Positions 9,073-56,809 of a DNA stretch of 64,000 nt are shown here, piece by piece (positions within the stretch are counted from its first letter, which is position 1; each line of letters opens with the position of its first letter). The stretch comes from Candidatus Omnitrophota bacterium (GTDB lineage Bacteria; Omnitrophota; Gorgyraeia; Zapsychrales; Fredricksoniimonadaceae): assembly GCA_903908245.1 (NCBI GenBank), contig CAIVRE010000011.1, positions 2,411 to 66,410 on the forward strand. The letters are read 5' to 3'. Below the pieces are notes generated by a model. It worked only from the letters and a program-made list of their open reading frames with translations. It ran no database searches and had not been told where the DNA came from. The position numbers and the translations under genes were made by a program.

Positions 9073-9172
9073 ATTGTTTTCCTTTTCTTGGTGGAAACCC
9101 CTTCACCCCGATGGCCTATTGGCCATCAGGAGGTTCAGGGACATTTTGTGAAGAATCCTTCACAAAAAGAAA

Positions 9173-22759: not shown

Positions 22760-23865
22760 TGGACAAAGTTTTCCGGTGGATCACCTCGTTCGGCCGGCCG
22801 TCGTATGTTGTGTTCTTTGTTACCGCCCGCTGCAATGCGCGTTGCAAGATGTGTTTTTACTCGCAGAACATGGACGCGAATACCGCCAAAGACGAGCTGA
22901 CGGTCGACGAGTATTCACGGATCGCGCGCGGGCTTGGCCGTTTCAATGTCCTGGGCATCTCCGGCGGAGAGCCTTTTCTGCGGGACGACCTGCATAAAGT
23001 CGTGGCCGCGATCTATGACCACTCTTCACCTCTGGTCCTGGACCTTCCGACAAACGGGTATTTTACGGAAAGTGTTTTGAGGCAGGTTGAACTGATCGCG
23101 AAGTACTGCACCAGAATGACCGTGGATGTGCAGCTTTCCATTGACGGCCCAGAAGCGGTTCATGACGGTATTCGTCAGGTCCAGGGCGGGTTCCGCCGGA
23201 TGTTCGAAACATATCACGGCCTCCTGGAATTGCGAAAGAGGTTTTCCAATTTACGTTTGAAAGCCTGTGTGGTCTATTCCGCCTATAATCAGGACAGCAT
23301 GCCGGAGCTGTTCGACCTGATCGAACGGGACATGTCTGGGATCGACCGCCTTGTCTTTTCCGTCGCGCATGGCACACCGGCCAACCAGAAGGCGTTTGAT
23401 TTTGACTGGGACAAGTATTTCGCTTTTTGCGACCGGCTGCGCGGTTCCCCTTTAATGCAGGGAGGACGGGACCTTCATTCGGTTTTGACCCAGGCGCTCA
23501 GGGTCGTCAAGAACGCTTTTTTGAAGGATATTTTACGGACGAAGGATATGTATCGTTATTGCGGGGCCGGTACAAGTGTGGTGGCGGTGAGCGAAACGGG
23601 CGATGTTTTCCCCTGTGAGCCGTTATGGACCCCGGTTGCCAACTTGCGAAAGTATGGGTATGATCTTTGGGCGGTCCTGCGGTCGCAGGAGATGAAGGAT
23701 TTTCAAAAGGATATCCGCCGCAAGCGCTGTCATTGCCATTGGGGCCTTCCGATGACGAATGCCATCCTTTTCAGCCCGCGGTTTTATCCGCGGGTCGCCT
23801 GGGAAATGGGGCGTGTGGTGGTCCGCAACGCGTGCTGCGCGGGGAAGGGGAGCGGTGGGGTTTAA
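22759..23865 (+). CDS. radical SAM protein with C-terminal SPASM/twitch-like Cys cluster
   Basis: CNARCKMC (CxxxCxxC) near N-terminus, GGEPFL, C-terminal CGAG...C...C cluster; start ATG overlaps SDR stop (TGATG). Confidence 0.75.
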   Translation: MDKVFRWITSFGRPSYVVFFVTARCNARCKMCFYSQNMDANTAKDELTVDEYSRIARGLGRFNVLGISGGEPFLRDDLHKVVAAIYDHSSPLVLDLPTNGYFTESVLRQVELIAKYCTRMTVDVQLSIDGPEAVHDGIRQVQGGFRRMFETYHGLLELRKRFSNLRLKACVVYSAYNQDSMPELFDLIERDMSGIDRLVFSVAHGTPANQKAFDFDWDKYFAFCDRLRGSPLMQGGRDLHSVLTQALRVVKNAFLKDILRTKDMYRYCGAGTSVVAVSETGDVFPCEPLWTPVANLRKYGYDLWAVLRSQEMKDFQKDIRRKRCHCHWGLPMTNAILFSPRFYPRVAWEMGRVVVRNACCAGKGSGGV

Positions 23866-24730
23866 GCTGGACCTTCATGTCCATACGGAGTCTTTCGGGC
23901 GTGTTTATATGGACGAAAAGAGCCTGGCGGCCGCGCTTAAGGCGCGCGGGCTTGACGGGATCGCGGCAACGAATTTTTCCAATATTTCCCATGCCCTGTG
24001 GTTGAAAAAGCAGCTGCCTCAATATCTGATCATTGTTGGACAGGAGGTCTGGTCGTCCAAAGGGCATATCGGGGCGCTGGGGATCACGCGGAAGATCCCC
24101 AATTTTCGTTCGCCGCAGGAGACGATCGAGGAGATCCATCGGCAAGGCGGCCTGGCGGTGGCACATCATCCTTTTCTTGTGATGGGGCTCGGGCGCCTGG
24201 CATTTGATCTGCCGGTCGATCTTATCGAGGGTTATAACGGGATGATCGGGGCGCTTTGGATCCATAATTTTCTTGCGCAGCGCCGCGCGCGCGCGGCAGG
24301 GCGCGTGTGCGTGTCTTCTACGGACACGACCGCGGTTGAATTTATCGGGCAAAGCCGTGTTGAGGTGATGACGGACGACCGGATGGATGTCCTTGCGGCA
24401 TTGCGGGCCGGGCGCCTTCGGATGATCCGTCGGCCCATGCCGGTCCCGGTGGGATTTATCGCCAGGAATTTTCTTGGTTTCAGGAGGCTGGCGCCGTGCC
24501 GTTTACACGCTGCGCCGTGTTTTTTGTGCGGCAATTCAATGACGGTAAGGTTATTCAACCGGAAGGTTGTTTGTGAGGACTGCCGTTGTGAGGAAGTTTC
24601 GCGCGTAGCCTGCGCGCAGGGCCATCATTTCTGCATTCCTTGTGTTATGCGCCGTATCGGCAAGGCGGATGATGCGGTTGATATTTCCAGGATCACGGTT
24701 TATCCGCACGGATACCCGGCGGAAGAATGA
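23855..24730 (+). CDS. PHP-domain metal-dependent phosphoesterase with C-terminal tandem zinc-ribbon
   Basis: LDLHVHT PHP motif; probable GTG start at 23855 (ORF-track ATG 23759 overlaps upstream gene by >100 nt); C-terminal CxxC/CxC clusters. Confidence 0.6.
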   Translation: MGFKLDLHVHTESFGRVYMDEKSLAAALKARGLDGIAATNFSNISHALWLKKQLPQYLIIVGQEVWSSKGHIGALGITRKIPNFRSPQETIEEIHRQGGLAVAHHPFLVMGLGRLAFDLPVDLIEGYNGMIGALWIHNFLAQRRARAAGRVCVSSTDTTAVEFIGQSRVEVMTDDRMDVLAALRAGRLRMIRRPMPVPVGFIARNFLGFRRLAPCRLHAAPCFLCGNSMTVRLFNRKVVCEDCRCEEVSRVACAQGHHFCIPCVMRRIGKADDAVDISRITVYPHGYPAEE

Positions 24731-25770
24731 ACGGAGATAAAATGAAAACATTGCAGAAATTCTTAGGGACTGCGCTTTTATACGCAAAAGTAGGCTTGCC
24801 GCGGATGACACCACGGAAGGCCTGGCATATGGTGTCCTATTGGGTCAAGACAACCTGCCTGGGGCAGAAGATCCCCTGGCTTGTCGAGCTTTCCGTGACA
24901 TACCGATGTCAATGCCGTTGCAAGCACTGTTCGGTCTCAAATTATTTTGAACAGGCGGGGAAAAAGCCTGAGATGACCGGTGATGAGATCAAAAGCATCC
25001 TTCGCCAGTCGGCGTCAATGGGCATTCCGAAGGTTGATTTCTTCGGCGGGGAGCCTTTACTGCGTAAAGATATCATCGAACTTGTGCGTTACGCGGAAGA
25101 GTTGGGGATCTATACATCCGTGACGACCAATGCGTTGCTTCTGGACCGGCCGATGCTAGCGGCCCTTTCGGCGGCCGGGATCAGCTGTATCAATATCAGT
25201 ATCGACAGCACTTCCTCTGCCGAGCATGATCAGTTAAGGGGCGTTGAAGGTATATATACGAAAGCGGTCGATGCGTTCGGTTTTTGTAATGAGGCGCGTA
25301 TCCCGTGCATCTTTTCCACTTATGTCACCCGCAAGAGGATCAACGGGCTTCTTCCCGGCGAGAAGGATGGCAGTTCCTTTACGGAGCTGATCCTTCTGGC
25401 GCGCAAGGTCAAGGCGACCGCGGTGCGCGTTCTGTTCCCGATCATTTCCGGCGAGTGGGTGAAGCAGAAAGAGGTTGAGCTCAACGAGCAGGAAAAAAGT
25501 GCGGTCATTGAAGCGATTGATCCGTCTTTCGTTTTTGTTGAGGGGGCTTATTCGGTCGTTAAAGGCCGTAAAGTCTGCCAGGCGTTAAGCGGGAAGATGA
25601 TCAATATTTCTCCGTACGGGGATATCCAGATCTGCGTGGCTTTCCCGAATTCTTTCGGGAATGTTGTCCGGGAGGGGTTGCGGCCTGCCCTGGAAAAGAT
25701 GTGGGGGCATTCGATCTATCAGAAGAACAAGGATGGCAGTTGCTGTAGTACGGATGACCTTAAGGTGTAA
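24727..25770 (+). CDS. radical SAM protein (MoaA/PqqE-like core) with SPASM/twitch-like C-terminus
   Basis: CQCRCKHC motif after LSVTYRC, GGEPLL; 4-nt overlap with upstream gene. Confidence 0.75.
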   Translation: MNGDKMKTLQKFLGTALLYAKVGLPRMTPRKAWHMVSYWVKTTCLGQKIPWLVELSVTYRCQCRCKHCSVSNYFEQAGKKPEMTGDEIKSILRQSASMGIPKVDFFGGEPLLRKDIIELVRYAEELGIYTSVTTNALLLDRPMLAALSAAGISCINISIDSTSSAEHDQLRGVEGIYTKAVDAFGFCNEARIPCIFSTYVTRKRINGLLPGEKDGSSFTELILLARKVKATAVRVLFPIISGEWVKQKEVELNEQEKSAVIEAIDPSFVFVEGAYSVVKGRKVCQALSGKMINISPYGDIQICVAFPNSFGNVVREGLRPALEKMWGHSIYQKNKDGSCCSTDDLKV

Positions 25771-25773
25771 TTT

Positions 25774-27297
25774 ATGAGAGTGACTCTGATCCGTCCGCCG
25801 GTTTATGGTACCGGGTTCATGGGGGTCCAGCTGGTCCCGTTCCTTGGCGTCGTGTATGTGGCCGCGGCGGCGCGTGCCGCGGGGCATGAGGTTGATGTTA
25901 TTGACATGTGTGCGGAAGATATTGACCGTACGGAATGTGTCGACGGGCGTTTCGTTCAGTATGGCATGTCTTTTGACCGCCTGAGGGAACGTCTGAAGCC
26001 TTCGGATGTGATCGGTTTTACATGTATGTTCTCCCAGGAGTGGCCGTTCCATCGCAGGCTTATGGCCCATGTGGCGGGGCTTGCTCCGGAGAGCGTGATC
26101 TTTGCCGGCGGGGAACATGTGACCGCGCTGCCCGAGTTCTGCCTCCAGGACTGCCCGGAGCTTGACTATTGCATCGTCGGGGAAGGGGAACGCGCGGTGG
26201 TGGCGTTGTTAAATGCGCTGGCCCGCGGTGAAAGCCTGGACCAGGTGCCAAGCCTTGTATCCCGCCTCCCCGATAACGGCGGATATTCCCGTACGCCCCG
26301 TTCTCCCAGGATCTGCGATGTTGACAAGATCGCCCGTCCCGCCTGGGATCTGGTGCCGCTGGAAAACTATCTTTCCCGGGGGTTGAATTATCATTTGGCG
26401 CGGGGCCGTACGATCCCTGTGGTCGCGACGCGCGGATGCCCATATCAGTGCACGTTCTGTTCGAACGCCGGCATGTGGGGCCGGCAATGGGTCGAGCGCA
26501 GTGCCGCCGACCTGGCCGACGAGATCGAGGGTTATGTTGTTAAATACCACGCCGAGAATTTTGTATTCTCCGATTTGACGGCGGTGGTCTCGGCCGGGGA
26601 AATGACGGCGTTCTGCGGGGAATTGATCCGGCGGGACCTTAAGGTGACCTGGCAGCTTCCGACGCTTCGTACCGAGGCGCTTAATAAAGAGAACCTGGCA
26701 TTGATGTACAAGGCCGGTTGCCGGGAGCTGGATGTGGCTATCGAGTCCGGCTCTAAGCGGGTGCTGGAGAGCGTCCATAAAAAGAACGACCCCCTCAGGA
26801 TGGCGCGCGTTGTCCGGGAAGCGGTATCGGTCGGGATGAATGTCAGCAGTAATCTGGTCATCGGTCTACCGCAGGAAGGCTGGGGAGACCTGTGGCATAC
26901 TTACGGGCTCCTGATGAGCCTGGCTTTTCACGGGATGCACGAGGTTAATGTTTTTCCCTTCATCCCTTATCCGGGGTCCAGCCTGTTTTATGAATTGCTG
27001 GAACAGAAGAAAATTAAATTAGATGACGCTTTTTTTCTGTCTTTATTCAGCTATGCTGATTTAAGCCGGTCGGTGTCGTGGTCGCGGACCTTCCGCCCGG
27101 GGGTGCTGGGGTTCATGCGGATTTTTCTGATGGCGAGTTTTTATATGGTCATGCTGGTTTCTCATCCGTCGCGGCTGCTGCGGCTTGTTGTTAATGCCAG
27201 GAGCGGGCGGGCCACGACCAAGCTTGAAGGCGTGCTGAAAAGGATCTTTAAGAATATGAAAGCGTCATCCCGAACAAAGGCCGGTTATGCCAAATGA
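25774..27297 (+). CDS. B12-binding (class B) radical SAM protein
   Basis: N-terminal cobalamin-binding domain, CPYQCTFC radical SAM motif. Confidence 0.8.
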   Translation: MRVTLIRPPVYGTGFMGVQLVPFLGVVYVAAAARAAGHEVDVIDMCAEDIDRTECVDGRFVQYGMSFDRLRERLKPSDVIGFTCMFSQEWPFHRRLMAHVAGLAPESVIFAGGEHVTALPEFCLQDCPELDYCIVGEGERAVVALLNALARGESLDQVPSLVSRLPDNGGYSRTPRSPRICDVDKIARPAWDLVPLENYLSRGLNYHLARGRTIPVVATRGCPYQCTFCSNAGMWGRQWVERSAADLADEIEGYVVKYHAENFVFSDLTAVVSAGEMTAFCGELIRRDLKVTWQLPTLRTEALNKENLALMYKAGCRELDVAIESGSKRVLESVHKKNDPLRMARVVREAVSVGMNVSSNLVIGLPQEGWGDLWHTYGLLMSLAFHGMHEVNVFPFIPYPGSSLFYELLEQKKIKLDDAFFLSLFSYADLSRSVSWSRTFRPGVLGFMRIFLMASFYMVMLVSHPSRLLRLVVNARSGRATTKLEGVLKRIFKNMKASSRTKAGYAK

Positions 27298-30585: not shown

Positions 30586-31554
30586 ATGTCTTTCTTCGCG
30601 GGTAAAAAGATCCTGGTGACAGGAGCGACGGGGTTCATTGGCTTCAACCTTCTGGAGCGCCTGTTGACGCAGGGGGCGCGTGTCCGTGCGGTGGTGCATT
30701 CCAGGGAAGCGGCCGTCCGTGACCCGCGGGTAGAATATGTCCGTGGGGACCTGACTCTCATGGATGATTGCCGGCGCGCGGCCAGCGGAGTTGAACTGGT
30801 GTTCCACTGTGCGGCCAGCACATCAGGCGCGGCGGTGATCGAACGGACACCTTTGGTGCATGTGACCCCGAATATCGTGATGAACGCGCAACTTCTGGAG
30901 GCGGCGTACCAGGCTGGCGTCAAAAAGTTCTTGTGGATCAGCAGTTCAACTGGTTATCCGGATACAGGTGACCGCCCGGTGGCGGAATCCGAGATGATGC
31001 GGGGGGATCCGTACGATAAATATTATCATGTCGGCTGGATGAAGCGTTACAGCGAGATCCTTTGCCGGACTTACGGCGAGAAGGTCACTCCGCCCATGAT
31101 GACCGTTGTTTTGAGGCCGACGAATATTTACGGTGAGCATGATGATTTTGACCCGCGGACATCCCATGTCTTCGCCGCGCTTGTCCGCAAGGTCATTGAA
31201 CGGCAGGCGCCTCTTGAGGTCTGGGGGACCGGCGATGATATCCGGGACCTTGTTCATGTGCAGGATCTTGTTGATGCCATGCTCATTGCCATGGAAAAGG
31301 TCCAGCGGCATGATGTTTTTAATATTGGTCTCGGGAAAGGTTATAGCGTGAAGGACCTCTTGAGGCGTATGTTGTCTGTGGAAGGGTATACACAGGCGCA
31401 GGTCGTTTTTAATTTGTCGAAGCCGACAATGATCCCCGTGCGGATGGTGGATATTTCAAAAGCGGAGAAAGTTCTGGGATTCTCGCCAAAGATCGACATT
31501 GACGACGGGATCCGCCGGACAATGGCCTGGTATAAAAAGGGAAAGGGCCTTTAG
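30586..31554 (+). CDS. NAD-dependent epimerase/dehydratase (GDP-fucose synthase / UDP-sugar epimerase-like)
   Basis: VTGATGFIG Rossmann motif, YxxxK. Confidence 0.8.
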   Translation: MSFFAGKKILVTGATGFIGFNLLERLLTQGARVRAVVHSREAAVRDPRVEYVRGDLTLMDDCRRAASGVELVFHCAASTSGAAVIERTPLVHVTPNIVMNAQLLEAAYQAGVKKFLWISSSTGYPDTGDRPVAESEMMRGDPYDKYYHVGWMKRYSEILCRTYGEKVTPPMMTVVLRPTNIYGEHDDFDPRTSHVFAALVRKVIERQAPLEVWGTGDDIRDLVHVQDLVDAMLIAMEKVQRHDVFNIGLGKGYSVKDLLRRMLSVEGYTQAQVVFNLSKPTMIPVRMVDISKAEKVLGFSPKIDIDDGIRRTMAWYKKGKGL

Positions 31555-31555
31555 T

Positions 31556-33112
31556 ATGCCGTTCAGCCATTTATCAACGGATGCGGATGTGATCCTGGTT
31601 TATCCAAGGACCGGCGTTGACCTTGGCGCGACCATTGCTCCGCCGCATGGGTTGCTATCCTTGGCGGCGCCTTTACTTCACAAGGGGTACAAGGTCAGGA
31701 TCATTGACCAGCGGGTCGATCCGCTGTGGCGTGCCCATTTGACAGACGCCTTGCAGAAACGCCCGGTGTGTGTGGGGATATCCACGATGACGGGCACGCA
31801 GATCGCTTTTGCCCTTGAAGCGGCGAAACTTGTCCGGGAGACTGTGGGCGGGAAAGTCCCGCTGGTGTGGGGCGGGGCCCATCCGTCGAGCCTTCCGGAA
31901 CAGACCGTTGAAAGTGAATATGTGGATATTGTCTGTTCCGGTGAAGGGGATATCACTTTTGTGGAATTGGTGGACGCGCTGGCAGGGCATAAGCCGTTGA
32001 ACGGGGTTTCGGGCATTGTATTCAAGGATGGCGGTGCGGTGGTCACGACCCCGGCGCGCCCGCTGCTGGATGTCGAGTTGCTTTTCCCGACACCCTGGGA
32101 ACTGATCGACGTCGAGAAATATATTCACCGGGATTTTTATTTAAAGAACACTTACCGCAGCATGGACATCGGGCAGACGTCCCGTGGCTGTCCCTTCCTG
32201 TGCGGGTTCTGTTCCAGCGCGAGCCTGCGCCAGCGGCGCTGGCGGGCCATGTCGATCGAAAAGTCGCTCGAGGTCATCCTGGAGCCTGTCAAAAGGTTCA
32301 AGCTCGACAGCATCTGGATACGGGATGATGAATTTTATATTTCGCCTGAACGGGTGCACGGGATCTGCGAAGGCATTATCAACAGCGGCATCAAATTGCG
32401 CTGGTATTCTTCGGGGACGCGCGTGGATGTTTTTAACCGTTCCAGTTCCGGGCTTCTGGAGATCATCAAGCGCAGCGGTGCGGATACCCTCAAACTCGGC
32501 GCCGAGTCCGGGTCGGACCGTATCCTGAAGTTGATGAACAAGGGTATTTGCCGGGCGGATACGCTTAAGGCCAACCTCAAAGCGCGTGATCACGGGATCA
32601 TTCCGGTTTACGCCCTCATCATCGGGTTCCCGACGGAGACATTCGAGGACATCCACCAGACCATTGGCCTTTTTGTTCAGCTCAAGAGGGAGAATCCCCG
32701 TGCGCAGTTCGAGCTGATCGGGGCTTATACCGCTTTGCCGAAAACGCCGCTCTATGACCTGGCCATTGAGCATGGCCTTAAACCGCCGCAACGCCTGGAA
32801 GACTGGGTTGACTGGCTTTCGGATGATTATGACCTGACCGGCCAGAAGCTTCCGTGGTTCACTGCCAGGCAGCGGGAATATATCGGGAATATTACTTACA
32901 TGAGTTTATTGGCGAATGCTTCGGGCAATGCCGTTAACAGTATCGGGGATCATTTTTTACGGAATCTTCTCAAGTTCTTTATTACACCGGTCAGTCATTT
33001 TGAGCGGTTCAAGCTGATACGCCGCTGGTATCAATGGGCGCCGGAGATGCAGGTCATCCGGCGTGTACGCCAGGCGGTCTTCTATAAGAAAGAATCTTCG
33101 GGTCCCGCGTGA
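31556..33112 (+). CDS. B12-binding (class B) radical SAM protein
   Basis: Start at MPFSHL 1 nt after epimerase stop; cobalamin-binding domain; CPFLCGFC motif. Confidence 0.8.
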   Translation: MPFSHLSTDADVILVYPRTGVDLGATIAPPHGLLSLAAPLLHKGYKVRIIDQRVDPLWRAHLTDALQKRPVCVGISTMTGTQIAFALEAAKLVRETVGGKVPLVWGGAHPSSLPEQTVESEYVDIVCSGEGDITFVELVDALAGHKPLNGVSGIVFKDGGAVVTTPARPLLDVELLFPTPWELIDVEKYIHRDFYLKNTYRSMDIGQTSRGCPFLCGFCSSASLRQRRWRAMSIEKSLEVILEPVKRFKLDSIWIRDDEFYISPERVHGICEGIINSGIKLRWYSSGTRVDVFNRSSSGLLEIIKRSGADTLKLGAESGSDRILKLMNKGICRADTLKANLKARDHGIIPVYALIIGFPTETFEDIHQTIGLFVQLKRENPRAQFELIGAYTALPKTPLYDLAIEHGLKPPQRLEDWVDWLSDDYDLTGQKLPWFTARQREYIGNITYMSLLANASGNAVNSIGDHFLRNLLKFFITPVSHFERFKLIRRWYQWAPEMQVIRRVRQAVFYKKESSGPA

Positions 33113-34581
33113 AGATCCTTCTGATCTATCCACAGTATTCGCACAGCAGTGAATTCGATTCCCGGGCGCCGTCGATGGCGCTTTTTTATCTGGCGGCGTC
33201 CCTGGAGAAACAGGGGCATACGGTCCGTGTTTTTGACGCATCGCTCGGGCCGATTACGCGGACGGGCAATGTGTTCCGTTACGGCCTGTCGCATGAAGAA
33301 GTCGCGGATGTTTTAAAAGCGGAAATTTTTGACCTGGCGGGTATCAGTTGTTCTTTTACAGCCCGTTGGCCTTTTGTGCGCAAGGTTGCGGAACAGATCA
33401 AGGAGATATATCCCGGTAAGCCGGTTTTGATCGGGGGGTTATACCCAACCTATGCCTGGGAAGATTGCCTTCGTTCCTGCCCGTCGGTCGATGTTGTCCT
33501 TTTGGGAGAAGGAGAACAAAGTTTCGGCCAGTTGGCTTCGGGGATGCAGAAGGGGCTTGGCCTTGCTGATGCCTGCAGAGGAATTGACGGTATTTCCTGG
33601 CGAAAGGCGGATATATTTCAGGTTAACCCAAAAACGAACTATATTGATGCTCTTGATGATCTGCCGTTCCCCTCGTGGCATCTGGCGGACCTGAAAACAT
33701 ATTTTCGTCTGCAGAAAAGCATTTTTGAGCTGCCGGCGCCGTGCCTGCCCATCCTTTCATCGAGAAGCTGTCCGTTCCGGTGTTCTTTCTGTAACATGTA
33801 TATTACCCATGGCCGGCGCTGGCGTGCCCGTTCGGCTGTTAATGTCCTTGATGAACTGCAGTATCTGGTGAAGACCTTTGGCGTCCGGCGGTTTTACTTT
33901 GTGGATGACAATTTCAGTATTGACCTTGAACGGGCGAAAACGATCTGCCGCGGGATCATAGATCGGAAACTCGGGATCAAGTATAATTTTCATAACGGTT
34001 TGAGCATCAAGACCATTGATCGCGAGTTGGTGGAGTTGATGAAAAAGAGCGGCTGTACGAGTGTTTGCCTGGCGATCGAATCCGGCAGCGAGCGGGTGCG
34101 CAACGCGATCTACCGCAAAGGCCTTCCGACACAAAAGATCAAGGATGTGGTCGGCTGGTTCCTTAAGGCGGGGATCCCGACCATCGGGTATTTCATGGTC
34201 GGGGCACCGGGAGAGACGAAGGACGATTTTTTGATGAGCCGGGACCTGGTGGCAACGCTTCCGCTGTCGCTGATAACAGTGGGGATCTATACGCCGTATC
34301 CGCAGACCGAATTGTATGATGAGTGCAAGAAGCGCGGCTGGCTCAAAGAGCCCGGGGCCAATGAAGAGGGGCGGGTGGAAATGTTCTCGACGATGCTGCA
34401 AACGCCGGATTTTACCGTTGATGAGGTGGGGGCCTGGCAAAAAGAGCTGTATTTAACATTCATTCGTCACCATTGGCCGACGTTGATCAGGGAGCTGGTG
34501 CGCCCTTGGGGCGTGGTTAACATGGATATGATCGGGAAGTTCCTGGGGATGATCCGGTTCCGGTCTTTTTTACGCAAATAA
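33109..34581 (+). CDS. B12-binding (class B) radical SAM protein
   Basis: GTG start overlapping previous stop; CPFRCSFC motif; B12-binding N-terminus. Confidence 0.8.
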   Translation: MKILLIYPQYSHSSEFDSRAPSMALFYLAASLEKQGHTVRVFDASLGPITRTGNVFRYGLSHEEVADVLKAEIFDLAGISCSFTARWPFVRKVAEQIKEIYPGKPVLIGGLYPTYAWEDCLRSCPSVDVVLLGEGEQSFGQLASGMQKGLGLADACRGIDGISWRKADIFQVNPKTNYIDALDDLPFPSWHLADLKTYFRLQKSIFELPAPCLPILSSRSCPFRCSFCNMYITHGRRWRARSAVNVLDELQYLVKTFGVRRFYFVDDNFSIDLERAKTICRGIIDRKLGIKYNFHNGLSIKTIDRELVELMKKSGCTSVCLAIESGSERVRNAIYRKGLPTQKIKDVVGWFLKAGIPTIGYFMVGAPGETKDDFLMSRDLVATLPLSLITVGIYTPYPQTELYDECKKRGWLKEPGANEEGRVEMFSTMLQTPDFTVDEVGAWQKELYLTFIRHHWPTLIRELVRPWGVVNMDMIGKFLGMIRFRSFLRK

Positions 34582-34593
34582 AAGCAGGCGCGC

Positions 34594-35634
34594 ATGTTTA
34601 AATATCTTCGCTATTTTTGTTCGATCGTGGCTGGCCATGTTCTGCGCCGGGATATCCCGATCCTTGTTACTTTGTGTGTGACCCATCGTTGCAATATGCG
34701 GTGTATTTATTGTTACGGGCATTTTTACGACCGCAAGGAACCGGATATGTCGACGGAGGACATCCTTCGTTTGATCGATGAAATGGCAGCCGCGGGGACA
34801 CGTTATATTTCGCTCAACGGCGGTGAGGCTCTTTTGAGGGATGATATCGGCGTGATCGTGGACAGGATCCGGTCCAAAGGCATCCTTTGCCATTTGAGTA
34901 CGAACGGGTTATTGATCAGGAACAGGATCGATGTCTTAAGGAAGATCGATTCGCTGGCGGTCAGTATCGACGGGGTAGGCCGGGAGAACGATCTCAACCG
35001 CGGGCAGGGGACATATGCTAGGATCCTCGACGGGCTTTCTTTTCTGCGCGAACAGGGCATTCACTTTCATACGCATACGGTCATTACACGGCATAATGCG
35101 GGAGCGCTGGAGGCGATCCTGGGGCTGGCTGAAAAGTTCGGGTCCCGGGCGCAATTTAGCCTGTGCAGGGTGGCCGATTCGCCTTCCAAGGACATTGGGC
35201 TGGGGGATGAGCAGTTAAAGTGCGTTGTCCACAATATCCTTGAGTTGAAAAGACTGGGCCGCCCGGTATTCTTTTCCGGGCAGGCGTATGAAACGTACCT
35301 TTCCTGGCCGTTCTCTTATGATGTGATCAAAGTCGACGAAAAAAGCACGCCCTCGTTCCCTTCTGCTCCGCCGTGCTATGTCAAGCGGTTCTCCTGCCAT
35401 ATTGAACCTGACGGGGCCGTGTATCCCTGTATTGTATTGTCCGGTAAAGGCCCGGCGTTGAATGCCAGGAAGTCAGGCTTTGCGGAAGTCTGGCGGCAGG
35501 TCACAAAGAGCCCCTGCCGGGCGTGTTACAACATTTGTTGTAACGACCTCAATCATATCTTCAGCCTTAATTTCGATTCGATCAGGAATGCCTGTGGGGT
35601 TGTTTTGGGGCGTTTTCTTCCGGTGAAGAAATAA
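34594..35634 (+). CDS. radical SAM protein with SPASM/twitch-like C-terminus
   Basis: CNMRCIYC after LCVTHRC, GGEALL, C-terminal Cys cluster (CYVKRFSCH...YPC). Confidence 0.75.
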   Translation: MFKYLRYFCSIVAGHVLRRDIPILVTLCVTHRCNMRCIYCYGHFYDRKEPDMSTEDILRLIDEMAAAGTRYISLNGGEALLRDDIGVIVDRIRSKGILCHLSTNGLLIRNRIDVLRKIDSLAVSIDGVGRENDLNRGQGTYARILDGLSFLREQGIHFHTHTVITRHNAGALEAILGLAEKFGSRAQFSLCRVADSPSKDIGLGDEQLKCVVHNILELKRLGRPVFFSGQAYETYLSWPFSYDVIKVDEKSTPSFPSAPPCYVKRFSCHIEPDGAVYPCIVLSGKGPALNARKSGFAEVWRQVTKSPCRACYNICCNDLNHIFSLNFDSIRNACGVVLGRFLPVKK

Positions 35635-35643
35635 CGGCGGGAT

Positions 35644-37923
35644 CTAAAGGGGATCCGGACGGCGCCCGAAGCCTTGTTTGAAGAGATAAAGGACCGCTCC
35701 CGCGATCATCGATATTAAAAGTAAAAGCGCCGTGATGCTCACCCATTGGACCGTTGTCCCGAAAACAAATCGTACCGTCGAGTGCCCGTAAGGGATCATG
35801 ACCGCTTTATATCCGATATTCGTTTGAATGACCGGCTGGCGCTTGCCGTTGACAAAAGCGCTCCAGTTCGGGTCGTAGGCGTCGGCGTAGTACAGGAAAC
35901 CGTTCTGCCCGGGTTTTTCTTCCAGGGCCACATCCACCACCAGTTCGTTGAAAGAGAAAGTTTTGACCTTGATGGGGGCAGAGACAGCTCTGTCATTGGA
36001 GTTGGCGAACGCCCGTGAAGATGTTATACGCAGGACGTCTTTGGGAAGGGGCTGCCCGCCTTTGTTAAGGCTCGCGGGTGTTGTGAAGATCATATTCCCG
36101 GCGAATTCCGGCAGGCAGATGATCCTGAGCAGGTCGGCATTATCCGGTGCGATATTGATGTGTGAAAAAAAGGCGATCTTGTTGCTGTTGAATCCCGAGA
36201 CAGCCTCCAGGATCTTGAACGCGTTTGGTTTGGCCACGATCGCGGCGTTATATTCCATGACCGACCTCTCGGCATAGTCGGTGCGAAAAATGGAAACGAT
36301 ATTGTCTGTGAACAGGAAAGTGTCGGTTGTGTCGTAAAGGGACCCTACCCGCGGCTCGGCGCTCAGGACAGGCAGAAGGATGGCGGAACGCCCGTTTAAG
36401 GTGTTCTTGGTGATGTCCAGGGCGCGTTGTTCGGGGAACGCGTAGGCATACGGGTCAAAGAGTTCAAGGAGGTTCTTTTCAGCGACGGGCATCCGGGTAA
36501 CGATATAGGAATAGCGGTAGAACCAGAGGTCGCAGGAGAGAAGGAGCATGATAATAAAAAAGAACATTTTTGCCTGCCGGTGCTGAAGGATGAAATACAA
36601 AGAGATCAGCGAAAGCAGGAGCAGCGCGAGGAGCCTGGCCGGAAGAAGATCAATAAAGATCCTGTCAAAAGAGGTCATGTGCCAGAACGTTTCCTGGAGC
36701 TGCAGGGCATCCCTGGAAAGCCCCTGGACCGGGATGAAAAGAAAAGCCATGGGCCAGAGTTTTTTTAATTTTGGGAACATGTCTTTTTCGAAGAATTTCG
36801 CGACGCCGAAGCCGGCGTAAAAGACCATGAACAGCTTGGCGACCGGGGCGGTCAGGCCGATGTGCCGGAAACAATTCCCCATGGGGAAAGCGTAATAGAA
36901 CGTCCGGCTTACGACGGAATCCATGCTGAACAGGAAGAGGATGCCGGCCGTACCAAGCAGGACAAGTGCGCGAGGTTCGCGCACATAGAAGATCGCGATG
37001 AGCGCAAAGAACCAGGTCAGGAATCCGCAGTAAAGATTGTTGTCGATATTCTGGTTGCCGGGGTAGCGGGTGAAAGCCGCGTCGAGTTTTCCGAAGCCGG
37101 TATGCCCGCCGTAGGTCAGGAAATTGTCCAGGGGGACGATCCCTGAATCCGAACGGGCGGCCCCCAGGTAATAGATATTGTTACGCCCGTAGATAAAATA
37201 ATAGAGCCCTATTGCGGCAACAAGAAGGAAGGCCAACAGGACGATAATATGCCTGAGGCGGATATTTTTCAGGACCCCCTCCAGGTCATGGTGTTCCATG
37301 ATGATCAGCGGTATGGCGTAAACGAGGACCACAAAGAACGTGAAGATCGAGTCTTGCGGCGGGTTATTGACAACGGATAAAAGTCCCAGTGCGAATGCAC
37401 ACAGCAGAAAGTTCGGCTGGCGGGAATCAAGCCAGCGGTGGATGGCGTATAAGAGGAGAGGCAGGAAATAAAAGTTCTGAAAATTCCACCATATTTGCGG
37501 ATACCAGATGGTGCTGCCGATCAGCGCGAAGGTGGTGAACCAGACGGGCTTGCTTGAGCGGTAATAGACTGTCCCCAGGAGAATGGTCCCGCCGAGGAAT
37601 AACATCTCGTAGCAGAATATCTGGGCGTAGACCATGTAAACGGCGTTCATTTTGATGCCGATGAACCCGAATAAATAATAGAGAGGGGAAAGAAGGTGTA
37701 AAAGGGCGGTGAAGAAATAATTCCCCGGCAGGCCGTGCGAAAGGAACGGGAACCAGAGCGGCAGGGTTTTATGCTGGACCAGTTCATTGTAATAGATGTA
37801 TTGGAGTTGAAGATACTGGAATGTGTCGTGGCTTATTGGGACGCGGTTCTGGATAATAAGACAGAAATAGGTAAGCCCCAGGAAGATACTGCCGGCAAGA
37901 AGGATCCAGTGCGTCTTACGCAT
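35644..37923 (-). CDS. large polytopic membrane protein, YfhO/GT-C-like putative glycosyltransferase
   Basis: ~760 aa, >12 predicted TM helices by hydrophobicity, large C-terminal soluble domain; only 9-nt convergent gap to upstream rSAM gene. Confidence 0.5.
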   Translation of the reverse strand: MRKTHWILLAGSIFLGLTYFCLIIQNRVPISHDTFQYLQLQYIYYNELVQHKTLPLWFPFLSHGLPGNYFFTALLHLLSPLYYLFGFIGIKMNAVYMVYAQIFCYEMLFLGGTILLGTVYYRSSKPVWFTTFALIGSTIWYPQIWWNFQNFYFLPLLLYAIHRWLDSRQPNFLLCAFALGLLSVVNNPPQDSIFTFFVVLVYAIPLIIMEHHDLEGVLKNIRLRHIIVLLAFLLVAAIGLYYFIYGRNNIYYLGAARSDSGIVPLDNFLTYGGHTGFGKLDAAFTRYPGNQNIDNNLYCGFLTWFFALIAIFYVREPRALVLLGTAGILFLFSMDSVVSRTFYYAFPMGNCFRHIGLTAPVAKLFMVFYAGFGVAKFFEKDMFPKLKKLWPMAFLFIPVQGLSRDALQLQETFWHMTSFDRIFIDLLPARLLALLLLSLISLYFILQHRQAKMFFFIIMLLLSCDLWFYRYSYIVTRMPVAEKNLLELFDPYAYAFPEQRALDITKNTLNGRSAILLPVLSAEPRVGSLYDTTDTFLFTDNIVSIFRTDYAERSVMEYNAAIVAKPNAFKILEAVSGFNSNKIAFFSHINIAPDNADLLRIICLPEFAGNMIFTTPASLNKGGQPLPKDVLRITSSRAFANSNDRAVSAPIKVKTFSFNELVVDVALEEKPGQNGFLYYADAYDPNWSAFVNGKRQPVIQTNIGYKAVMIPYGHSTVRFVFGTTVQWVSITALLLLISMIAGAVLYLFKQGFGRRPDPL

Positions 37924-39379
37924 GGGCGGGATCTTCAATGATCCGGCGGCGCAAAGGGGTTTTGATCATATTTAAAATGTGTTCGCGGGTCTGGAGGCCG
38001 AACTTGCGTTCGATCATATCCAGATATTCCGGCCGGCTGTGGTAGCGTATAAAAGAATCATCGCGGAACTTCAGGACTTGAGCTGGAGAAAGTTCCCGGC
38101 TGCCCATGGGGATACATTCGTAGCCGTAAAGGGAGTATTCTTTCCAGGTCTTTGGGATCTTGAGCTGGTTGAAAAGGACAGTGCCGGGGTAGGCGAAGAC
38201 CGGGTATATATTGGCCCATTCGAAATTGTAACGGACCAGGAAGTCGTAGGTTTGCTGCATGGTGTTGGCCGTTTCTTCCCAAAGCCCGCAAACGACATCG
38301 GCACAAATGGAAAGGCCTTCTTCCTGGGTATCCCGAATAACGCGGTCCACATCGGTATCATGGATCCCTTTGCGGGCGTCTTTTAACAGGGCTGCTGCCG
38401 AGGATTCGAAACCATAGGAGATCCAGTTCAGCCCGACTTTCTTGAGGCGTTTGAGCAGGCGGCGGTTGATGGTGTCAACGCGTGAATAGGCCCACATATT
38501 GAGATCGTAACCTTTGGGCTCCAGGAGGTCGCAGAATTCATCCATGCGTTTGTCATTCACTACGAAAAGTTCGTCGAGGATCTTGATGTGGCGGACGCCG
38601 TATTTTTCCCTCAGCAGGCTTATCTCGTCGACAACATTGGCCATGCTGCGGAAGCGCTGGGTGCGTTTTCCAAAAAGATTATTGATGGAACAGAAATTGC
38701 ACGAGAACGGACAGCCGAAGCTGGTCCAGACAATGGCGTAAGGGGTGCGGTGGTCCAGGTCGCCGAACGTGTGCCAGTTGTGCGCGCGGTAATTCGCGGG
38801 CTTCATAAGCTCCCAGTCGATCGGGGGGAGCGTGTTCAGGTCATTCAAGAGGACGGCATCCGGTGTCTGATGATACCCGGCTTGCGCGTCAAGATAGGAA
38901 ATCCCGGGGATATTGTCGACCGGAAGTCTTTCTTTAACAGAGCGGAATAAAGCCGGAATGGTTTCCCAGCCTTCATTGCGGACGACAAAGTCGGCGCCTG
39001 TTTCCCGCAGGGTCCTCTCCGGCAGTACTGTCGGATGCGGGCCCCAGACAAATGTTTTCAGTCCGGTGTTGCGGGCGTTGAACTTTTCATAGAATGCGTT
39101 GACCCCGGCCATCGCCATGGTGGAAGACGCCGGGTTGGCGCCCGTGCAGATAACGCCGGTGAGCGCCGGTTTCTTTGTTTCGATGATGGCGATCAACTCG
39201 TCGATAAGGATATTGTCGACGTCAGCTTCAATGATCTCAACGTGAAGGCCTTTGGCTTTAAGGGAACTGTTCAAAAGCCCTTGCTGGATGTTGGGAGGGA
39301 CTGAAGAATATACGTCGGAAGTGGCGGCGTAAAGGTCTTTTTTGAAATTGATCGTTGTCAGCAGAATGAGGTCGTTCAT
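37916..39379 (-). CDS. B12-binding (class B) radical SAM protein
   Basis: CPFSCNFC motif; N-terminal B12-binding domain; 8-nt overlap with downstream membrane protein gene. Confidence 0.8.
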   Translation of the reverse strand: MNDLILLTTINFKKDLYAATSDVYSSVPPNIQQGLLNSSLKAKGLHVEIIEADVDNILIDELIAIIETKKPALTGVICTGANPASSTMAMAGVNAFYEKFNARNTGLKTFVWGPHPTVLPERTLRETGADFVVRNEGWETIPALFRSVKERLPVDNIPGISYLDAQAGYHQTPDAVLLNDLNTLPPIDWELMKPANYRAHNWHTFGDLDHRTPYAIVWTSFGCPFSCNFCSINNLFGKRTQRFRSMANVVDEISLLREKYGVRHIKILDELFVVNDKRMDEFCDLLEPKGYDLNMWAYSRVDTINRRLLKRLKKVGLNWISYGFESSAAALLKDARKGIHDTDVDRVIRDTQEEGLSICADVVCGLWEETANTMQQTYDFLVRYNFEWANIYPVFAYPGTVLFNQLKIPKTWKEYSLYGYECIPMGSRELSPAQVLKFRDDSFIRYHSRPEYLDMIERKFGLQTREHILNMIKTPLRRRIIEDPAHA

Positions 39380-39445
39380 AAATATTGCGGTTATATTAAC
39401 ATGAGTAAAATTTTCCCGGAAGCACTATTTCCAGATTTATACCTT

Positions 39446-39466
39446 CCTTCATCCCGGGGATGAAGG
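39446..39466 (+). promoter_or_regulatory. perfect 10-bp inverted repeat (CCTTCATCCC-G-GGGATGAAGG) overlapping the Shine-Dalgarno of a small ORF
   Basis: Read directly; right arm contains GAAGG of the AGGAGG SD upstream of ATG 39474; lies in divergent intergenic region. Confidence 0.5.
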
Positions 39467-39473
39467 AGGGGGA

Positions 39474-39566
39474 ATGCCTCTTGTTTGGAAAAATAGTCTT
39501 GTTTGTTGCTGTATAGTTTTGTATGCTCTTTTTTCAGAGGATTTAACGGAGATCAGGGATCATTAG
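39474..39566 (+). CDS. candidate 30-aa Cys-rich small ORF (MPLVWKNSLVCCCIVLYALFSEDLTEIRDH)
   Basis: Not in 60-aa ORF track. Strong SD GGAGG 4-6 nt upstream, stop TAG 39564-66, 13 nt before downstream membrane GT gene. Confidence 0.3.
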   Translation: MPLVWKNSLVCCCIVLYALFSEDLTEIRDH

Positions 39567-39579
39567 GTAAAGGCGTGCC

Positions 39580-41334
39580 ATGCCGGTCAAAAGTTTTCTT
39601 AGAAGCAAGGTCGCGATTATCGTTGTTTTGGCTTTGGCCACGGCATTGACATTTCAATGCGTCCGGCGGTTTCAGTTCCTGGGCATGGACGATCATGTTT
39701 ATGTCTGGAACAATGACGCTGTCAAGAAGGGCTTCACGCCCGAAGGCATTCGATGGGCGTTGTGCGCCGACCTGTGTTTTCCCGACAATCAGGCCGATTA
39801 TTGGCAGCCCATGACGTTCCTTTCCAGGATGCTGGATGTTCAGCTTTTCGGGATGGATCCGGGGGCGCATCATCTGGTCAATTTGTTCTTCCATATTCTT
39901 AATGCCAGCCTTTTATTCATCATCCTCTGGCTTTTTACCCGACGACAATACTTGAGCTTTCTGGCCGCATTATTATTTGCCCTGCACCCTTTGAACAGTG
40001 AGGTTTTGGGGTGGGTTACCGCGCGGAAAGACGTCTTGTCCCATTTCTTTGCTTTAACGTCCATGGCCTTATATTTTTATTGGGGGAAGATCTCCTGGAA
40101 AAAATACGCGCTGCTCGTTGTCATCTTTGCTTTTGGCCTGATGTCCAAGCCGACAGTGATCGTCTTGCCTGCGCTTTTGTTCATGATGGAATGCATGCGT
40201 TTTGACGGCCAGTTTTGGCTGGAGAATATAAAGAGCGCCTTGCGCAAGACCTGGCCGTTCTTCTTGGTCGCACTGGCGTATTTCCCAATCCCATGGATAG
40301 GCCAGCCGCATGCATTTAAGGACGCTGTTAATCCGCCGGTTCTAAAGGCGGTGTCCGCTTATGGGTTTTATCTTCAAAAGATCCTTTGGCCATCGGATTT
40401 AACATTGTACGGCCCTGTGCCGTATAGTCCGGTGAATGGGAGGGGGGTTGGCATTACTGTTTTTGTTCTTGGTTCCATCACGGCGCTGGCCATGAAATTC
40501 TATCGACGGGAGAAAATGCTGGCGGTGGGGTGGGGGGTGTTCCTGATATGTATGTTGCCGTCTGTTTTTATCGACTGGCCGGCAGATCGGTTCACCTATT
40601 TATCCAAGGCCGGGATATTGATCATGCTTGTCTGGGCTTTTGCCTTATGGCGTCCGAAGGTTCGGCTTCTCTGCCTGGCATTGGCGGGTGTTATTGCCTA
40701 TATTGTTTTATCTGTACATGCCATTATGTTTTGGCAGAATGACCAGATCCTTATGGAACGCGCGCTGAGGTTCTACCCCAATAATTACGCGGCGCATAAC
40801 CTTTTAGGCGTCTGGTATGGCCAAAGGAGCGATCTGGTCAAGGCGGAGGGCCATCTTCAGAATGCGATCGATATTTATCCCGGCCGCGATAAGCCCTGGG
40901 CTAACTTGGGCAATATCCGCATGGAACAAAAACGCTACGATGAGGCCAGGCGCTTGTTTCGGGAATCCTTGAAACGCAACCCTGATGACTATCAAACGAT
41001 CACAAATCTGGGTAATGCGTACATCAATTTAAAGGATTATAAAAGGGCTATAGAGGTTTATCAGGAAGCCCTGAAGCTGCGGCCTAATGAGCGTCAGATC
41101 CTTAATAATATGGCTATAGCGTATTTGGCGGATGGTGATCCTCAAGAGGCCTTAAAGCTTGCGGAAGGCCTTCAGGATGCCCGGTTGTATTTTTTTCTGG
41201 GAGCCAGGGCTTATGAGGCGGGCGATAAGTCGTTGGCCATTGAAATGCTGGAAAGGTCTGTTAACTTAAACCCGGAGAGTGGCGCCAGGGCTGTTGAATT
41301 GATCAGAAAGATCCAAGGGGGCGATTCCAATTGA
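39580..41334 (+). CDS. PMT/ArnT-like (GT-C) polytopic membrane domain fused to C-terminal TPR repeats
   Basis: ~11 TM N-terminal domain resembling PMT_2 family, C-terminal TPR repeats (e.g. ...YDEARRLFRESLKRNPDDYQTITNLGNAYINLKDY...). Confidence 0.65.
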   Translation: MPVKSFLRSKVAIIVVLALATALTFQCVRRFQFLGMDDHVYVWNNDAVKKGFTPEGIRWALCADLCFPDNQADYWQPMTFLSRMLDVQLFGMDPGAHHLVNLFFHILNASLLFIILWLFTRRQYLSFLAALLFALHPLNSEVLGWVTARKDVLSHFFALTSMALYFYWGKISWKKYALLVVIFAFGLMSKPTVIVLPALLFMMECMRFDGQFWLENIKSALRKTWPFFLVALAYFPIPWIGQPHAFKDAVNPPVLKAVSAYGFYLQKILWPSDLTLYGPVPYSPVNGRGVGITVFVLGSITALAMKFYRREKMLAVGWGVFLICMLPSVFIDWPADRFTYLSKAGILIMLVWAFALWRPKVRLLCLALAGVIAYIVLSVHAIMFWQNDQILMERALRFYPNNYAAHNLLGVWYGQRSDLVKAEGHLQNAIDIYPGRDKPWANLGNIRMEQKRYDEARRLFRESLKRNPDDYQTITNLGNAYINLKDYKRAIEVYQEALKLRPNERQILNNMAIAYLADGDPQEALKLAEGLQDARLYFFLGARAYEAGDKSLAIEMLERSVNLNPESGARAVELIRKIQGGDSN

Positions 41335-43677: not shown

Positions 43678-44151
43678 TTATTTTGCCTGGCTTTGACCCA
43701 TTGGCTGAGTTTGGACTGTTACTTTCCCTTGTTGCCCCTGTTGTTCCTTCATTTCCTGGTGATGTTCCCTGCGGTTTTCATCAAAATGACGCAGGCTTCT
43801 TTCGTCTTTTTCGATATTCTTGTGGATAAAGCGCATCTGTTTTTCCAGCGGATTAGCCTTTGCCTGTATTTTCTGAACCTGTTCCCTTAATGGACTTATT
43901 TGTGCCTGGAGTTTCTTGATTTGATCATTCAACGGTTTCATTTGGGCCTGAAGAGGTTGAAGTTGGTCCTGTAATTGCTTTTCTTGTATACGTAATAACT
44001 GGATCTGCTGGCGAATTTCCTTGGCTTCTCCTTGTTTCCCATATTCGTTCACCGCAGGGGTTGCTGTCTGTTGGGCACGGACTGGGGATACAGCAATAAA
44101 TATCATGGGCAGAGCAATGATCGTCGTTAAGAATGCTTTTGATACCTTCAT
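43678..44151 (-). CDS. secreted coiled-coil protein with ~11-aa Q/L/K-rich repeats
   Basis: Signal peptide; repeats LQPLQAQMKP / LNDQIKKLQAQISP / LREQVQKIQAKANP. Confidence 0.55.
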   Translation of the reverse strand: MKVSKAFLTTIIALPMIFIAVSPVRAQQTATPAVNEYGKQGEAKEIRQQIQLLRIQEKQLQDQLQPLQAQMKPLNDQIKKLQAQISPLREQVQKIQAKANPLEKQMRFIHKNIEKDERSLRHFDENRREHHQEMKEQQGQQGKVTVQTQPMGQSQAK

Positions 44152-44202: not shown

Positions 44203-44763
44203 TTATTTGCTAGTTCCAGTCTTAGTTAAGGGCGGCTTCTGGGTTTCGTTCTTTTGAGGAACTTCTTTGGAAGAAGATTCTTTACTTAACAGCTCTTGTG
44301 CTTTTTGAAGGTCGCTCTTGTCTTGATAACAACGAGCAAGTTCCTCTTTGGTGCTCTGCAATTCACTTTTTGCCGCGCCCGAATTCTTACTCAAAGCACT
44401 CAGGTCTTTTTGAAGGGAGTCTTTGTCTTTTTGGGTAGCTTGTAATTCATTCGTTGTTGCCTTTAATGCGTCATTTAACTGATCCTGCTTTTTTTGAAGC
44501 GTGTCCCTGTCCTCTTTAGTGGTCTGCAATCTGTCTTTTATCGCATCCATATCTTTGGTTAACTCATCTTGTTTTTTCTGAAGAGAGTCCTTGTCTTGTT
44601 TAATGCGGGCCATTTCGGTTTTTGTCCCGGACAGTTGTTCGTTTGTATCGTCCAACTCTTTTTGTTTCGCGTTCAATGCTCCGTTACAAATAAAATATAT
44701 ACTCCCCAAAAACAGAAGCACGACAACTAAAAATACGATAAAGATCATTTTCTTCTTTTCCAT
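44203..44763 (-). CDS. membrane-anchored coiled-coil protein with four ~28-aa tandem repeats
   Basis: N-terminal TM helix; repeats KDSLQKKQDELTKD.../RDTLQKKQDQLNDA.../KDSLQKDLSALSKN... Confidence 0.55.
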   Translation of the reverse strand: MEKKKMIFIVFLVVVLLFLGSIYFICNGALNAKQKELDDTNEQLSGTKTEMARIKQDKDSLQKKQDELTKDMDAIKDRLQTTKEDRDTLQKKQDQLNDALKATTNELQATQKDKDSLQKDLSALSKNSGAAKSELQSTKEELARCYQDKSDLQKAQELLSKESSSKEVPQKNETQKPPLTKTGTSK

Positions 44764-56437: not shown

Positions 56438-56809
56438 TCAAGAATCCAGGATCTGCCGGACTATTTTCATTAGCTTCCGGATATCTCCGGCTTTTGAAAT
56501 ATAAGTGCGGTTAGGGAACTTGCTGCTTTGTTTCATGGCTTCCTCTTCGGAAATGGCGCCGGTCAGGAAGATCACCGGGATATAGCTTGTTTTTTCATTC
56601 TCCAGCAGATTGGCCGCGATATCCCCCCCGTCCATTCCGGGCATCATGACGTCCAGAATGATCAGGTCGGGAGCAGACTTCTTTGCCAGGTCGATGGCAT
56701 TGATCCCGTTGGTCGCTGTCAGGACCTCGAAACCTTCCCGGGAAAGGAATTTGGACATCATATCGAGGATGTTCTTTTCATTGTCAACTACGAGCACTTT
56801 TTTTGCCAT
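56438..56809 (-). CDS. single-domain response regulator receiver (CheY-like)
   Basis: D-D-K receiver pattern (LVVDNE..., ILDVMMPGMDG, ...FLTG). Confidence 0.8.
   Translation of the reverse strand: MAKKVLVVDNEKNILDMMSKFLSREGFEVLTATNGINAIDLAKKSAPDLIILDVMMPGMDGGDIAANLLENEKTSYIPVIFLTGAISEEEAMKQSSKFPNRTYISKAGDIRKLMKIVRQILDS

Follow-up and report, generated by a model that had tools for sequence, protein, structure and literature searches.

Layout of the locus

A 200-nt spacer between two divergent genes (39380-39579) was analysed in a stretch of 64,000 nucleotides from an Omnitrophota bacterium, the whole of which is referred to here as the window. The left neighbour of the spacer encodes a B12-binding radical SAM protein and is the first gene of its two-gene unit, and the right neighbour encodes a membrane glycosyltransferase (Table 1). 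The spacer contains a palindrome that folds into a stem-loop, a Shine-Dalgarno (SD)-like site within the stem, and a short open reading frame (ORF), the stop codon of which lies 13 nt before the glycosyltransferase start (39580). A previous reading of the window, made from the sequence alone (the sequence-only reading), had described the palindrome within this divergent intergenic region, the coordinates and translation of the small ORF and the 13-nt distance to the glycosyltransferase start, and all of its sequence claims have been verified; its interpretation was supported in part.

Table 1. Features of the spacer, its flanking genes and a reference terminator (positions in the window)
Feature	Position	Strand	Remarks
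Canonical terminator	9170-9196		One of three + strand loci reaching -20 kcal/mol
Membrane protein gene, YfhO-like	35644-37938	-	764 aa; two-gene unit with the radical SAM gene 37916-39379
B12-binding radical SAM gene	37916-39379	-	Left neighbour, divergent
Possible extended -10 (TGnTAATAT) of the radical SAM gene	39393-39401	-	Within the stretch alignable with locus L013
Stem-loop	39442-39470	+	13 bp including one G.U; predicted fold, -20.6 kcal/mol
Stem, left arm	39442-39454	+	CCUUCCUUCAUCC; anti-SD-like, pyrimidine-rich
Loop	39455-39457	+	CGG
Stem, right arm	39458-39470	+	GGAUGAAGGAGGG
SD-like core GGAGG	39465-39469	+	Wholly within the right arm, 4 nt before ATG 39474
Candidate short ORF	39474-39566	+	30 codons + TAG; ATG 39474, TAG 39564-39566; encodes MPLVWKNSLVCCCIVLYALFSEDLTEIRDH
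Predicted helix over glycosyltransferase ribosome-binding site and start	39566-39621	+	39566-39583 with early coding 39605-39621; pair probabilities ~0.7
PMT_2/TPR membrane glycosyltransferase gene (GT-C type)	39580-41334	+	584 aa; TPR repeats C-terminal

Two other large genes of the window were also annotated. The gene at 2255-6766 (+) encodes a 1503-aa protein in which Pfam recognizes a single domain, Glyco_transf_5 of the starch-synthase type (residues 514-722). The product of the 763-aa ORF at 19317-21608 (+) combines a cyclic-nucleotide-binding domain with a patatin-like phospholipase in one fusion protein. The listed start of this ORF overlaps the preceding SDR gene by ~190 nt; therefore, the true start is probably later.

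The palindrome and the stem-loop

The palindrome CCTTCATCCC-G-GGGATGAAGG is located at 39446-39466. Perfect complementarity is wider than first described, extending over 23 bp (39445-39467; 11-1-11), and a repeat with one T.G position covers 14 nt on each side (39442-39455 and 39457-39470; 93%). The centre of the palindrome (39453-39458) is a CCCGGG site of the SmaI/XmaI type.

Folding of the RNA, which the sequence-only reading had suggested as a check, gave a 13-bp stem closed by the loop CGG at -20.6 kcal/mol on the + strand. The hairpin of the - strand RNA reaches -16.7 kcal/mol, a difference of 3.9 kcal/mol, because the G.U pair becomes C.A on that strand. When the 200-nt spacer was shuffled 400 times with its dinucleotides preserved, no 29-nt hairpin of this stability arose (mean -9.2, sd 2.1, z -5.45); therefore, the hairpin is a real feature and is far beyond chance expectation. 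Only three + strand loci in the 64 kb reach -20 kcal/mol, and the spacer hairpin is among them.

One of the other loci is the terminator listed in Table 1, which has the sequence AAAGGCGCTGAC-TTT-GTCAGCGCCTTTT, is canonical and bidirectional, and is located 3' of a ferredoxin gene. This terminator has a U tract, which indicates that intrinsic terminators of this genome carry one. The spacer hairpin has no terminator-type U tract, unlike the genuine terminators of the genome, and it is therefore not a terminator.

Another very stable hairpin (-20.1 kcal/mol) was observed in the - strand RNA at 9105-9133. Its 5' arm holds CCUCC, and it is located ~35 nt upstream of an acetolactate-synthase-like (ilvB-like) gene (7342-9072, -). 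It could be a leader element of an ilvB/ilvN-like gene pair.

A search of Rfam gave no match at E values up to 10 within or beside the spacer. A scan of metagenomes for the combined pattern of hairpin and SD returned two chance matches, which fell within a coding region and a repeat region, respectively.

The Shine-Dalgarno-like site and its occlusion

The right arm of the palindrome had been claimed to supply the SD of the small ORF, and the GGAGG core is indeed located there. The duplex formed by this site with the 3' tail of 16S rRNA has an energy of -12.6 kcal/mol and is stronger than that of any other of the 52 starts tested (median -4.9). SD usage across the window is weak, with a median duplex energy of -4.9 kcal/mol for the 51 definable genes. 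Strong GGAGG sites are present in few genes, including 43678-44151 and 44203-44763, which have the lowest GC content at third codon positions (GC3, 0.43-0.44), and 56438-56809 (GC3 0.64).

The site is predicted to be almost completely occluded, as the sequence-only reading had proposed with its SD-sequestering hairpin. The stem covers the SD at functional spacing from the ATG with a stable helix, and the probability that GGAGG is unpaired is 0.002 at 37 °C. The predicted cost of opening positions -18 to +10 around ATG 39474 is 25.7 kcal/mol, the highest of all starts; across 51 genes the median is 7.8 kcal/mol and the maximum is 16.5-20.6 kcal/mol, depending on the context used. A Salis-type model would place initiation at ATG 39474 ~100-fold below that of the median gene, according to our estimate.

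The same reading had offered several devices that could make use of such a hairpin, and these were compared with the predicted behaviour of the stem. An RNA thermometer is contradicted by the melting profile, in which GGAGG is unpaired with a probability of 0.004 at 45 °C, rising to 0.106 at 85 °C (~90% still paired), and the stem does not melt below 95 °C; melting does not fall in the physiological range. A riboswitch expression platform fares no better, since there is no Rfam match, only 62 nt are available upstream of the stem, which must also hold the divergent promoter, and no mutually exclusive pairing was found. A search of the leader and early coding region revealed no alternative pairing partner beyond chance for either arm. 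Given the lack of melting, of an alternative partner and of room for an aptamer, the stem is best described as a static lock. Because transcription reaches the anti-SD arm before the SD arm and only 3 nt of loop separate them, no co-transcriptional window for initiation would be expected.

A third sensing device, a ribosome-stalling attenuator of the polycysteine type, is suggested by the three consecutive Cys codons of the short ORF, for which there is a parallel in the Cys attenuators of mycobacteria (bioRxiv 10.1101/834739). However, the short ORF is not leaderless and has an SD, the downstream gene encodes a PMT_2/TPR protein and is outside cysteine metabolism, and the ribosome-binding site (RBS) of the glycosyltransferase is predicted to pair with 39605-39621 of its own coding region and not with the Cys codons. 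The mycobacterial design is thus inapplicable, since this RBS is ordinary and its pairing does not involve the Cys tract, and the polycysteine attenuator was rejected. A leader that senses temperature, a ligand or cysteine supply would explain why the SD is base-paired, but it is very unlikely to be the function of this stem in view of a helix that remains ~90% closed at 85 °C, the absence of an Rfam match and of an alternative partner for either arm, and the position of the glycosyltransferase RBS pairing.

The short ORF and its peptide

The short ORF would encode a peptide that had been called Cys-rich, a description that amounts to three consecutive Cys among 30 residues. A single hydrophobic stretch, with a Kyte-Doolittle mean of up to 1.75 over 19 residues, is long enough for a membrane helix, and the tail of the peptide is acidic. 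The hydrophobicity is trivial because the sequence is T-rich.

The composition of the ORF looks non-coding. Its GC content is 0.36 and its GC3 is 0.30, whereas the genes have a mean GC3 of 0.62 and a minimum of 0.43; the spacers have GC contents of 0.30-0.56. On codon log-odds it ranks at the 4th percentile when compared with segments of real genes and in the top 20% when compared with spurious short ORFs. Gene calling in the source assemblies had not annotated the ORF.

No relative of the peptide was detected in any of the collections searched. The exact peptide is absent from a collection of 15 billion proteins, phmmer against 1.84 billion representatives gave 0 hits, and the back-translated CCCIVLYALF pattern gave 0 hits in JGI metagenome DNA. 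A tblastn search of all fetched related loci returned noise only, and the window holds no paralogue. Two further interpretations of the ORF were rejected. A frameshifted N-terminus of the glycosyltransferase was discarded because the N-termini of homologues align with 39580, and a lipoprotein signal was discarded on reading of the sequence, which has no lipobox ahead of the Cys run.

Only one other ATG ORF with a strong SD was found outside the first-pass list of long genes, and it is a genuine ferredoxin gene. This gene (9219-9494, -) encodes a 91-aa 4Fe-4S ferredoxin, starts with ATG and has the SD TGGAGGA; the first gene list treated the region as intergenic.

The short ORF might nevertheless be a real gene for a small membrane peptide, either toxin-like (type I) or a subunit or partner of the GT-C enzyme, the SD of which is occluded and which is made after processing or trans-activation. 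The peptide has 30 residues with the hydrophobic stretch and the acidic tail, the ORF lies directly upstream of a polytopic membrane enzyme, and the strongest SD of the window is trapped by an anti-SD a few nucleotides upstream, which has been described as a hallmark of the primary transcripts of type I toxins (PMC6733600, PMC5066626). When the locus was compared with type I toxin-antitoxin systems, the small hydrophobic peptide and the predicted occlusion of its SD were found, but neither a transcription unit of its own, ending in a terminator, nor an RNA antitoxin in antisense or divergent orientation was detected. The ORF has no terminator-like site or separate transcription unit, and the next start is 13 nt away. 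No antisense promoter-like site was detected within or beside it; the nearest promoter-like site on the - strand, and the sole one nearby, is inside the glycosyltransferase gene (39826-39797). The non-coding composition, the hydrophobicity that T-rich sequence gives for free, the lack of paralogues (in the window and in related loci) and of homologues, and the existence of glycosyltransferase homologues without such a partner further argue against a real peptide, which we regard as improbable. The peptide most likely has no function of its own.

The radical SAM genes

The window contains eight radical SAM genes, which are located within 9574-11040, 22756-27297, 31499-35634 and 37916-39379. Four of them also have a B12-binding domain by Pfam (25774-27297, 31499-33112, 33109-34581 and 37916-39379). 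The best named relatives of the radical SAM proteins of the window are from Omnitrophota metagenome-assembled genomes. The radical SAM genes are interleaved with genes for a split transketolase, SDRs, a GT2 enzyme similar to dolichyl-phosphate-hexose transferases, an NAD-epimerase and the YfhO-like 764-aa membrane protein, and this cassette is partly conserved in other Omnitrophota (loci L015-L017). Its product is probably a modified glycan or lipid.

The sequence-only reading had suggested that a CCC-containing peptide next to SPASM-type radical SAM enzymes could be a precursor of the ranthipeptide or sactipeptide kind, modified by the neighbouring enzymes. The adjoining radical SAM enzyme, however, is of the B12 type, and the sole SPASM enzyme of the window (34594-35634) is encoded 3.8 kb away. 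With eight radical SAM genes, one of them with SPASM, some weak sub-threshold similarity to the maturases ApyD, PapB and StsB is present, but every score is far under its cut-off (e.g., PapB 58 vs 340, ApyD 126 vs 750). The SPASM protein itself scores 58-110 bits against cut-offs of 265-625, and the product of the divergent B12 radical SAM gene is far under every cut-off for ribosomally synthesized and post-translationally modified peptide (RiPP) maturases. No cognate adjacent SPASM maturase and no co-occurring peptide family were found. The peptide has no leader/core architecture and belongs to no family, and the radical SAM cassette recurs in other Omnitrophota without it. The reading is unsupported because the peptide is absent beside every orthologous radical SAM gene (L013-L017), and a RiPP precursor is considered extremely unlikely.

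Relatives of the locus

The identical glycosyltransferase was found on ten contigs, three of which have DNA available and are 99.98-100% identical to the window. All contigs carrying the spacer are of the same strain. No related genome examined carries the spacer, which thus occurs in this one strain only. The P0242 contigs contain the opposite end of the radical SAM gene. A scan of the genome contigs for the glycosyltransferase gave TPR matches only. The nearest relatives of the glycosyltransferase have at most 44% identity and occur in unrelated contexts, where they abut or overlap their upstream genes; these homologues therefore have no leader.

The nearest relative of the radical SAM gene (80% identity; L013) has an HU gene upstream, from which it is separated by a 193-nt spacer. 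That spacer has no palindrome and no similar ORF, and only ~40 nt by the radical SAM start align with the spacer of the window. In relatives with ~60% identity (L015-L017), the gene is part of a same-strand cassette consisting of genes for GT2, epimerase, radical SAM, radical SAM and a large membrane protein, and neither the palindrome nor such a peptide occurs close to it. The orthologous radical SAM genes thus have other neighbours, and the spacer is a lineage-specific junction.

A motif ~14-22 nt upstream of the radical SAM ATG (TGnTAATAT in the window and TGnTAGCAT in L013, at 4960-5000) is common to the two loci. The radical SAM gene 37916-39379 has no SD (+1.0 kcal/mol). The lack of an SD, together with the closeness of the -10-like motif to the ATG, suggests that the leader of the radical SAM mRNA may be very short or absent.

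These comparisons bear on two explanations in which the RNA hairpin has no role. The first is a DNA operator, in which the 23-bp dyad would bind a dimeric transcription factor for both divergent promoters and the SD arm, the ATG and the ORF would be coincidental. Relative to the radical SAM start, the dyad lies 63-90 nt upstream, in the centre of the divergent promoter region, and the likely radical SAM promoter is directly beside it. In addition, the complementarity includes C39455 and G39457 around the centre, which are unable to pair in the RNA loop. However, copies of the half-site in the window occur only inside coding regions and in no other intergenic region, and the palindrome is missing upstream of the 80%-identical radical SAM orthologue. 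No helix-turn-helix regulator gene is nearby; the nearest regulator is of the OmpR type, a family that binds direct repeats, and is encoded 12 kb away. The complementarity of the stem is contiguous over its full length, which a nucleic-acid helix would require and a protein operator usually would not. An operator also needs three coincidences, namely GGAGG in an arm, the spacing of the ATG and 30 open codons, and the last two alone (an ATG at SD spacing followed by at least 30 open codons) were obtained together in 1.7% of cases when the downstream 109 nt were shuffled with the hairpin fixed, although this figure is not decisive because the finding was picked for being striking. An operator function seems unlikely.

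The second explanation is that the palindrome arose as a neutral by-product of an event at the DNA level, such as template switching at a rearrangement junction, and is functionless, with a spurious ORF. The lineage-specific junction is in line with such an origin, as the neighbours of the orthologues are HU (L013) or another radical SAM gene (L015-L017), the composition of the ORF is intergenic and nothing is conserved. Against this, the joint occurrence of a hairpin at z -5.5, the strongest SD-like site and a well-spaced ATG ORF is improbable, and a search for flanking repeats that would mark an inversion at the palindrome found none. A neutral origin is given about the same low weight as the operator.

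The glycosyltransferase start and possible coupling

The RBS of the glycosyltransferase is ordinary. Its SD duplex has an energy of -5.2 kcal/mol (median -4.9), and its opening energy of 9.4-9.6 kcal/mol ranks 15-17 among 51 genes. The sequence-only reading had offered a cis-regulatory leader for this gene as a further function of the short ORF, and the geometry, with a stop codon 13 nt before the start, is compatible with it. The stop near the downstream start is what a coupled leader ORF would have, whereas a dependence of the downstream gene on upstream translation was not found. Coupling is not required, since the RBS is ordinary; on the predicted structures, coupling of the short ORF to the glycosyltransferase is possible.

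A promoter scan reported no + strand promoter upstream of the stem. By eye, a weak promoter-like match (TTGCGG-N15-TAAAAT, 8/12) can be recognized there. Because this match is weak, the stem may be absent from the glycosyltransferase mRNA altogether.

Comparison with known systems

Hairpins formed by an SD and an anti-SD render the primary transcripts of type I toxins untranslatable, as described for aapA3/IsoA3 of Helicobacter pylori (PMC6733600) and dinQ of E. coli (PMC5066626). The spacer resembles these transcripts in having a hydrophobic ORF of ~30 codons with an SD locked by a complementary sequence a few nucleotides upstream. It differs from them in three respects: neither an antisense RNA gene nor a dedicated terminator nor repeated copies are visible, the ORF meets a large gene 13 nt later, and the structure is a single, very stable and static stem rather than one of several metastable or mutually exclusive folds.

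Coupled upstream leader ORFs share with this locus the short distance between stop and start, and a ribosome reaching the stop of the short ORF would open the helix predicted at the start of the glycosyltransferase gene. Here, however, the downstream RBS is ordinary and coupling is unneeded, and the RBS of the leader ORF itself is locked, unlike those of the classical examples. The polycysteine attenuators of mycobacteria are leaderless short ORFs (bioRxiv 10.1101/834739). They have in common with the present ORF three consecutive Cys codons and, probably, a position first on the transcript, whereas the ORF of the spacer is not leaderless, is followed by a glycosyltransferase gene rather than a cysteine-metabolism gene, and precedes an RBS that is not paired with the region covered by a stalled ribosome.

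RNA thermometers such as ROSE and fourU elements are imperfect, weak helices that melt at 30-45 °C. They also hold the SD paired in a hairpin, but the 13-bp stem of the spacer is predicted to remain closed above 85 °C and has no match in Rfam.

The STAB-SD of cryIIIA is an example of the protection of mRNA from 5' decay. Such protection by a 5'-proximal stem-loop or by ribosome binding to a strong SD has also been described for hbs of B. subtilis (PMC5737220). The spacer is similar to these systems in that its putative 5' leader, ahead of the main gene, combines a stable structure with an SD-like sequence of exceptional strength, but this SD-like site is inside the stem, so that 30S binding would be impossible while the stem is folded.

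Proposed model and significance

The reading that we tentatively prefer, although we hold it to be somewhat less than probable, is that the palindrome acts as RNA of the + strand, where it would form a static SD:anti-SD stem-loop in the glycosyltransferase leader and keep the short upstream ORF silent. The left arm would pair with the very strong RBS preceding ATG 39474; because of this pairing, the 30-codon ORF would be essentially untranslated unless a trans-acting factor removes or opens the left arm. Such a factor might be a helicase, a trans-acting RNA or a nuclease that cuts the arm. The glycosyltransferase would be translated from its own ordinary RBS. If the lock were opened, ribosomes ending the short ORF could unwind the helix over the glycosyltransferase start, and translation of the glycosyltransferase would increase. 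The analysis establishes the stem and how stable it is, the occlusion, and the strength and spacing of the SD-like site, whereas three elements of this model are inferred, namely co-transcription of the stem with the glycosyltransferase gene, the use of ATG 39474 as a true start, and the coupling. The model is favoured by a hairpin that exceeds chance and is more stable as + strand RNA, by the contiguous complementarity of the stem, by the strongest SD-like site with its well-spaced ATG and by the outlying opening cost; the weak promoter-like match, the composition of the ORF, the ordinary glycosyltransferase RBS and the leaderless glycosyltransferase homologues argue against it.

No cis element that could unlock the stem was found, since both arms lack an alternative pairing partner. 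In the absence of a trans factor, it would be odd for a strong RBS to be shut permanently by 20 kcal/mol. In a more elaborate version of the static lock, which is distinctly doubtful, the leader of the glycosyltransferase would be a gene for a membrane peptide of 30 residues (toxin-like or a GT-C subunit) that is locked by the hairpin and unlocked by processing or by a trans RNA. A hairpin-locked SD is a known device, and the present case is a further instance of it in one strain. The main value of the feature is that it defines a cheap reporter experiment, and it is not a discovery in itself.

Omnitrophota is an uncultivated phylum of ultra-small cells, and to our knowledge nothing is known of its translational control. 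The phylum is known from metagenomes only (PMC10066038). If the stem-loop is transcribed, it would be a clear example of RBS occlusion in Omnitrophota. A locked membrane-peptide gene, if true, would offer an initial view of small proteins and of post-transcriptional control in this phylum, and a locked, very strong SD before a glycosyltransferase of the cell envelope would be a hint that surface glycosylation can be switched.
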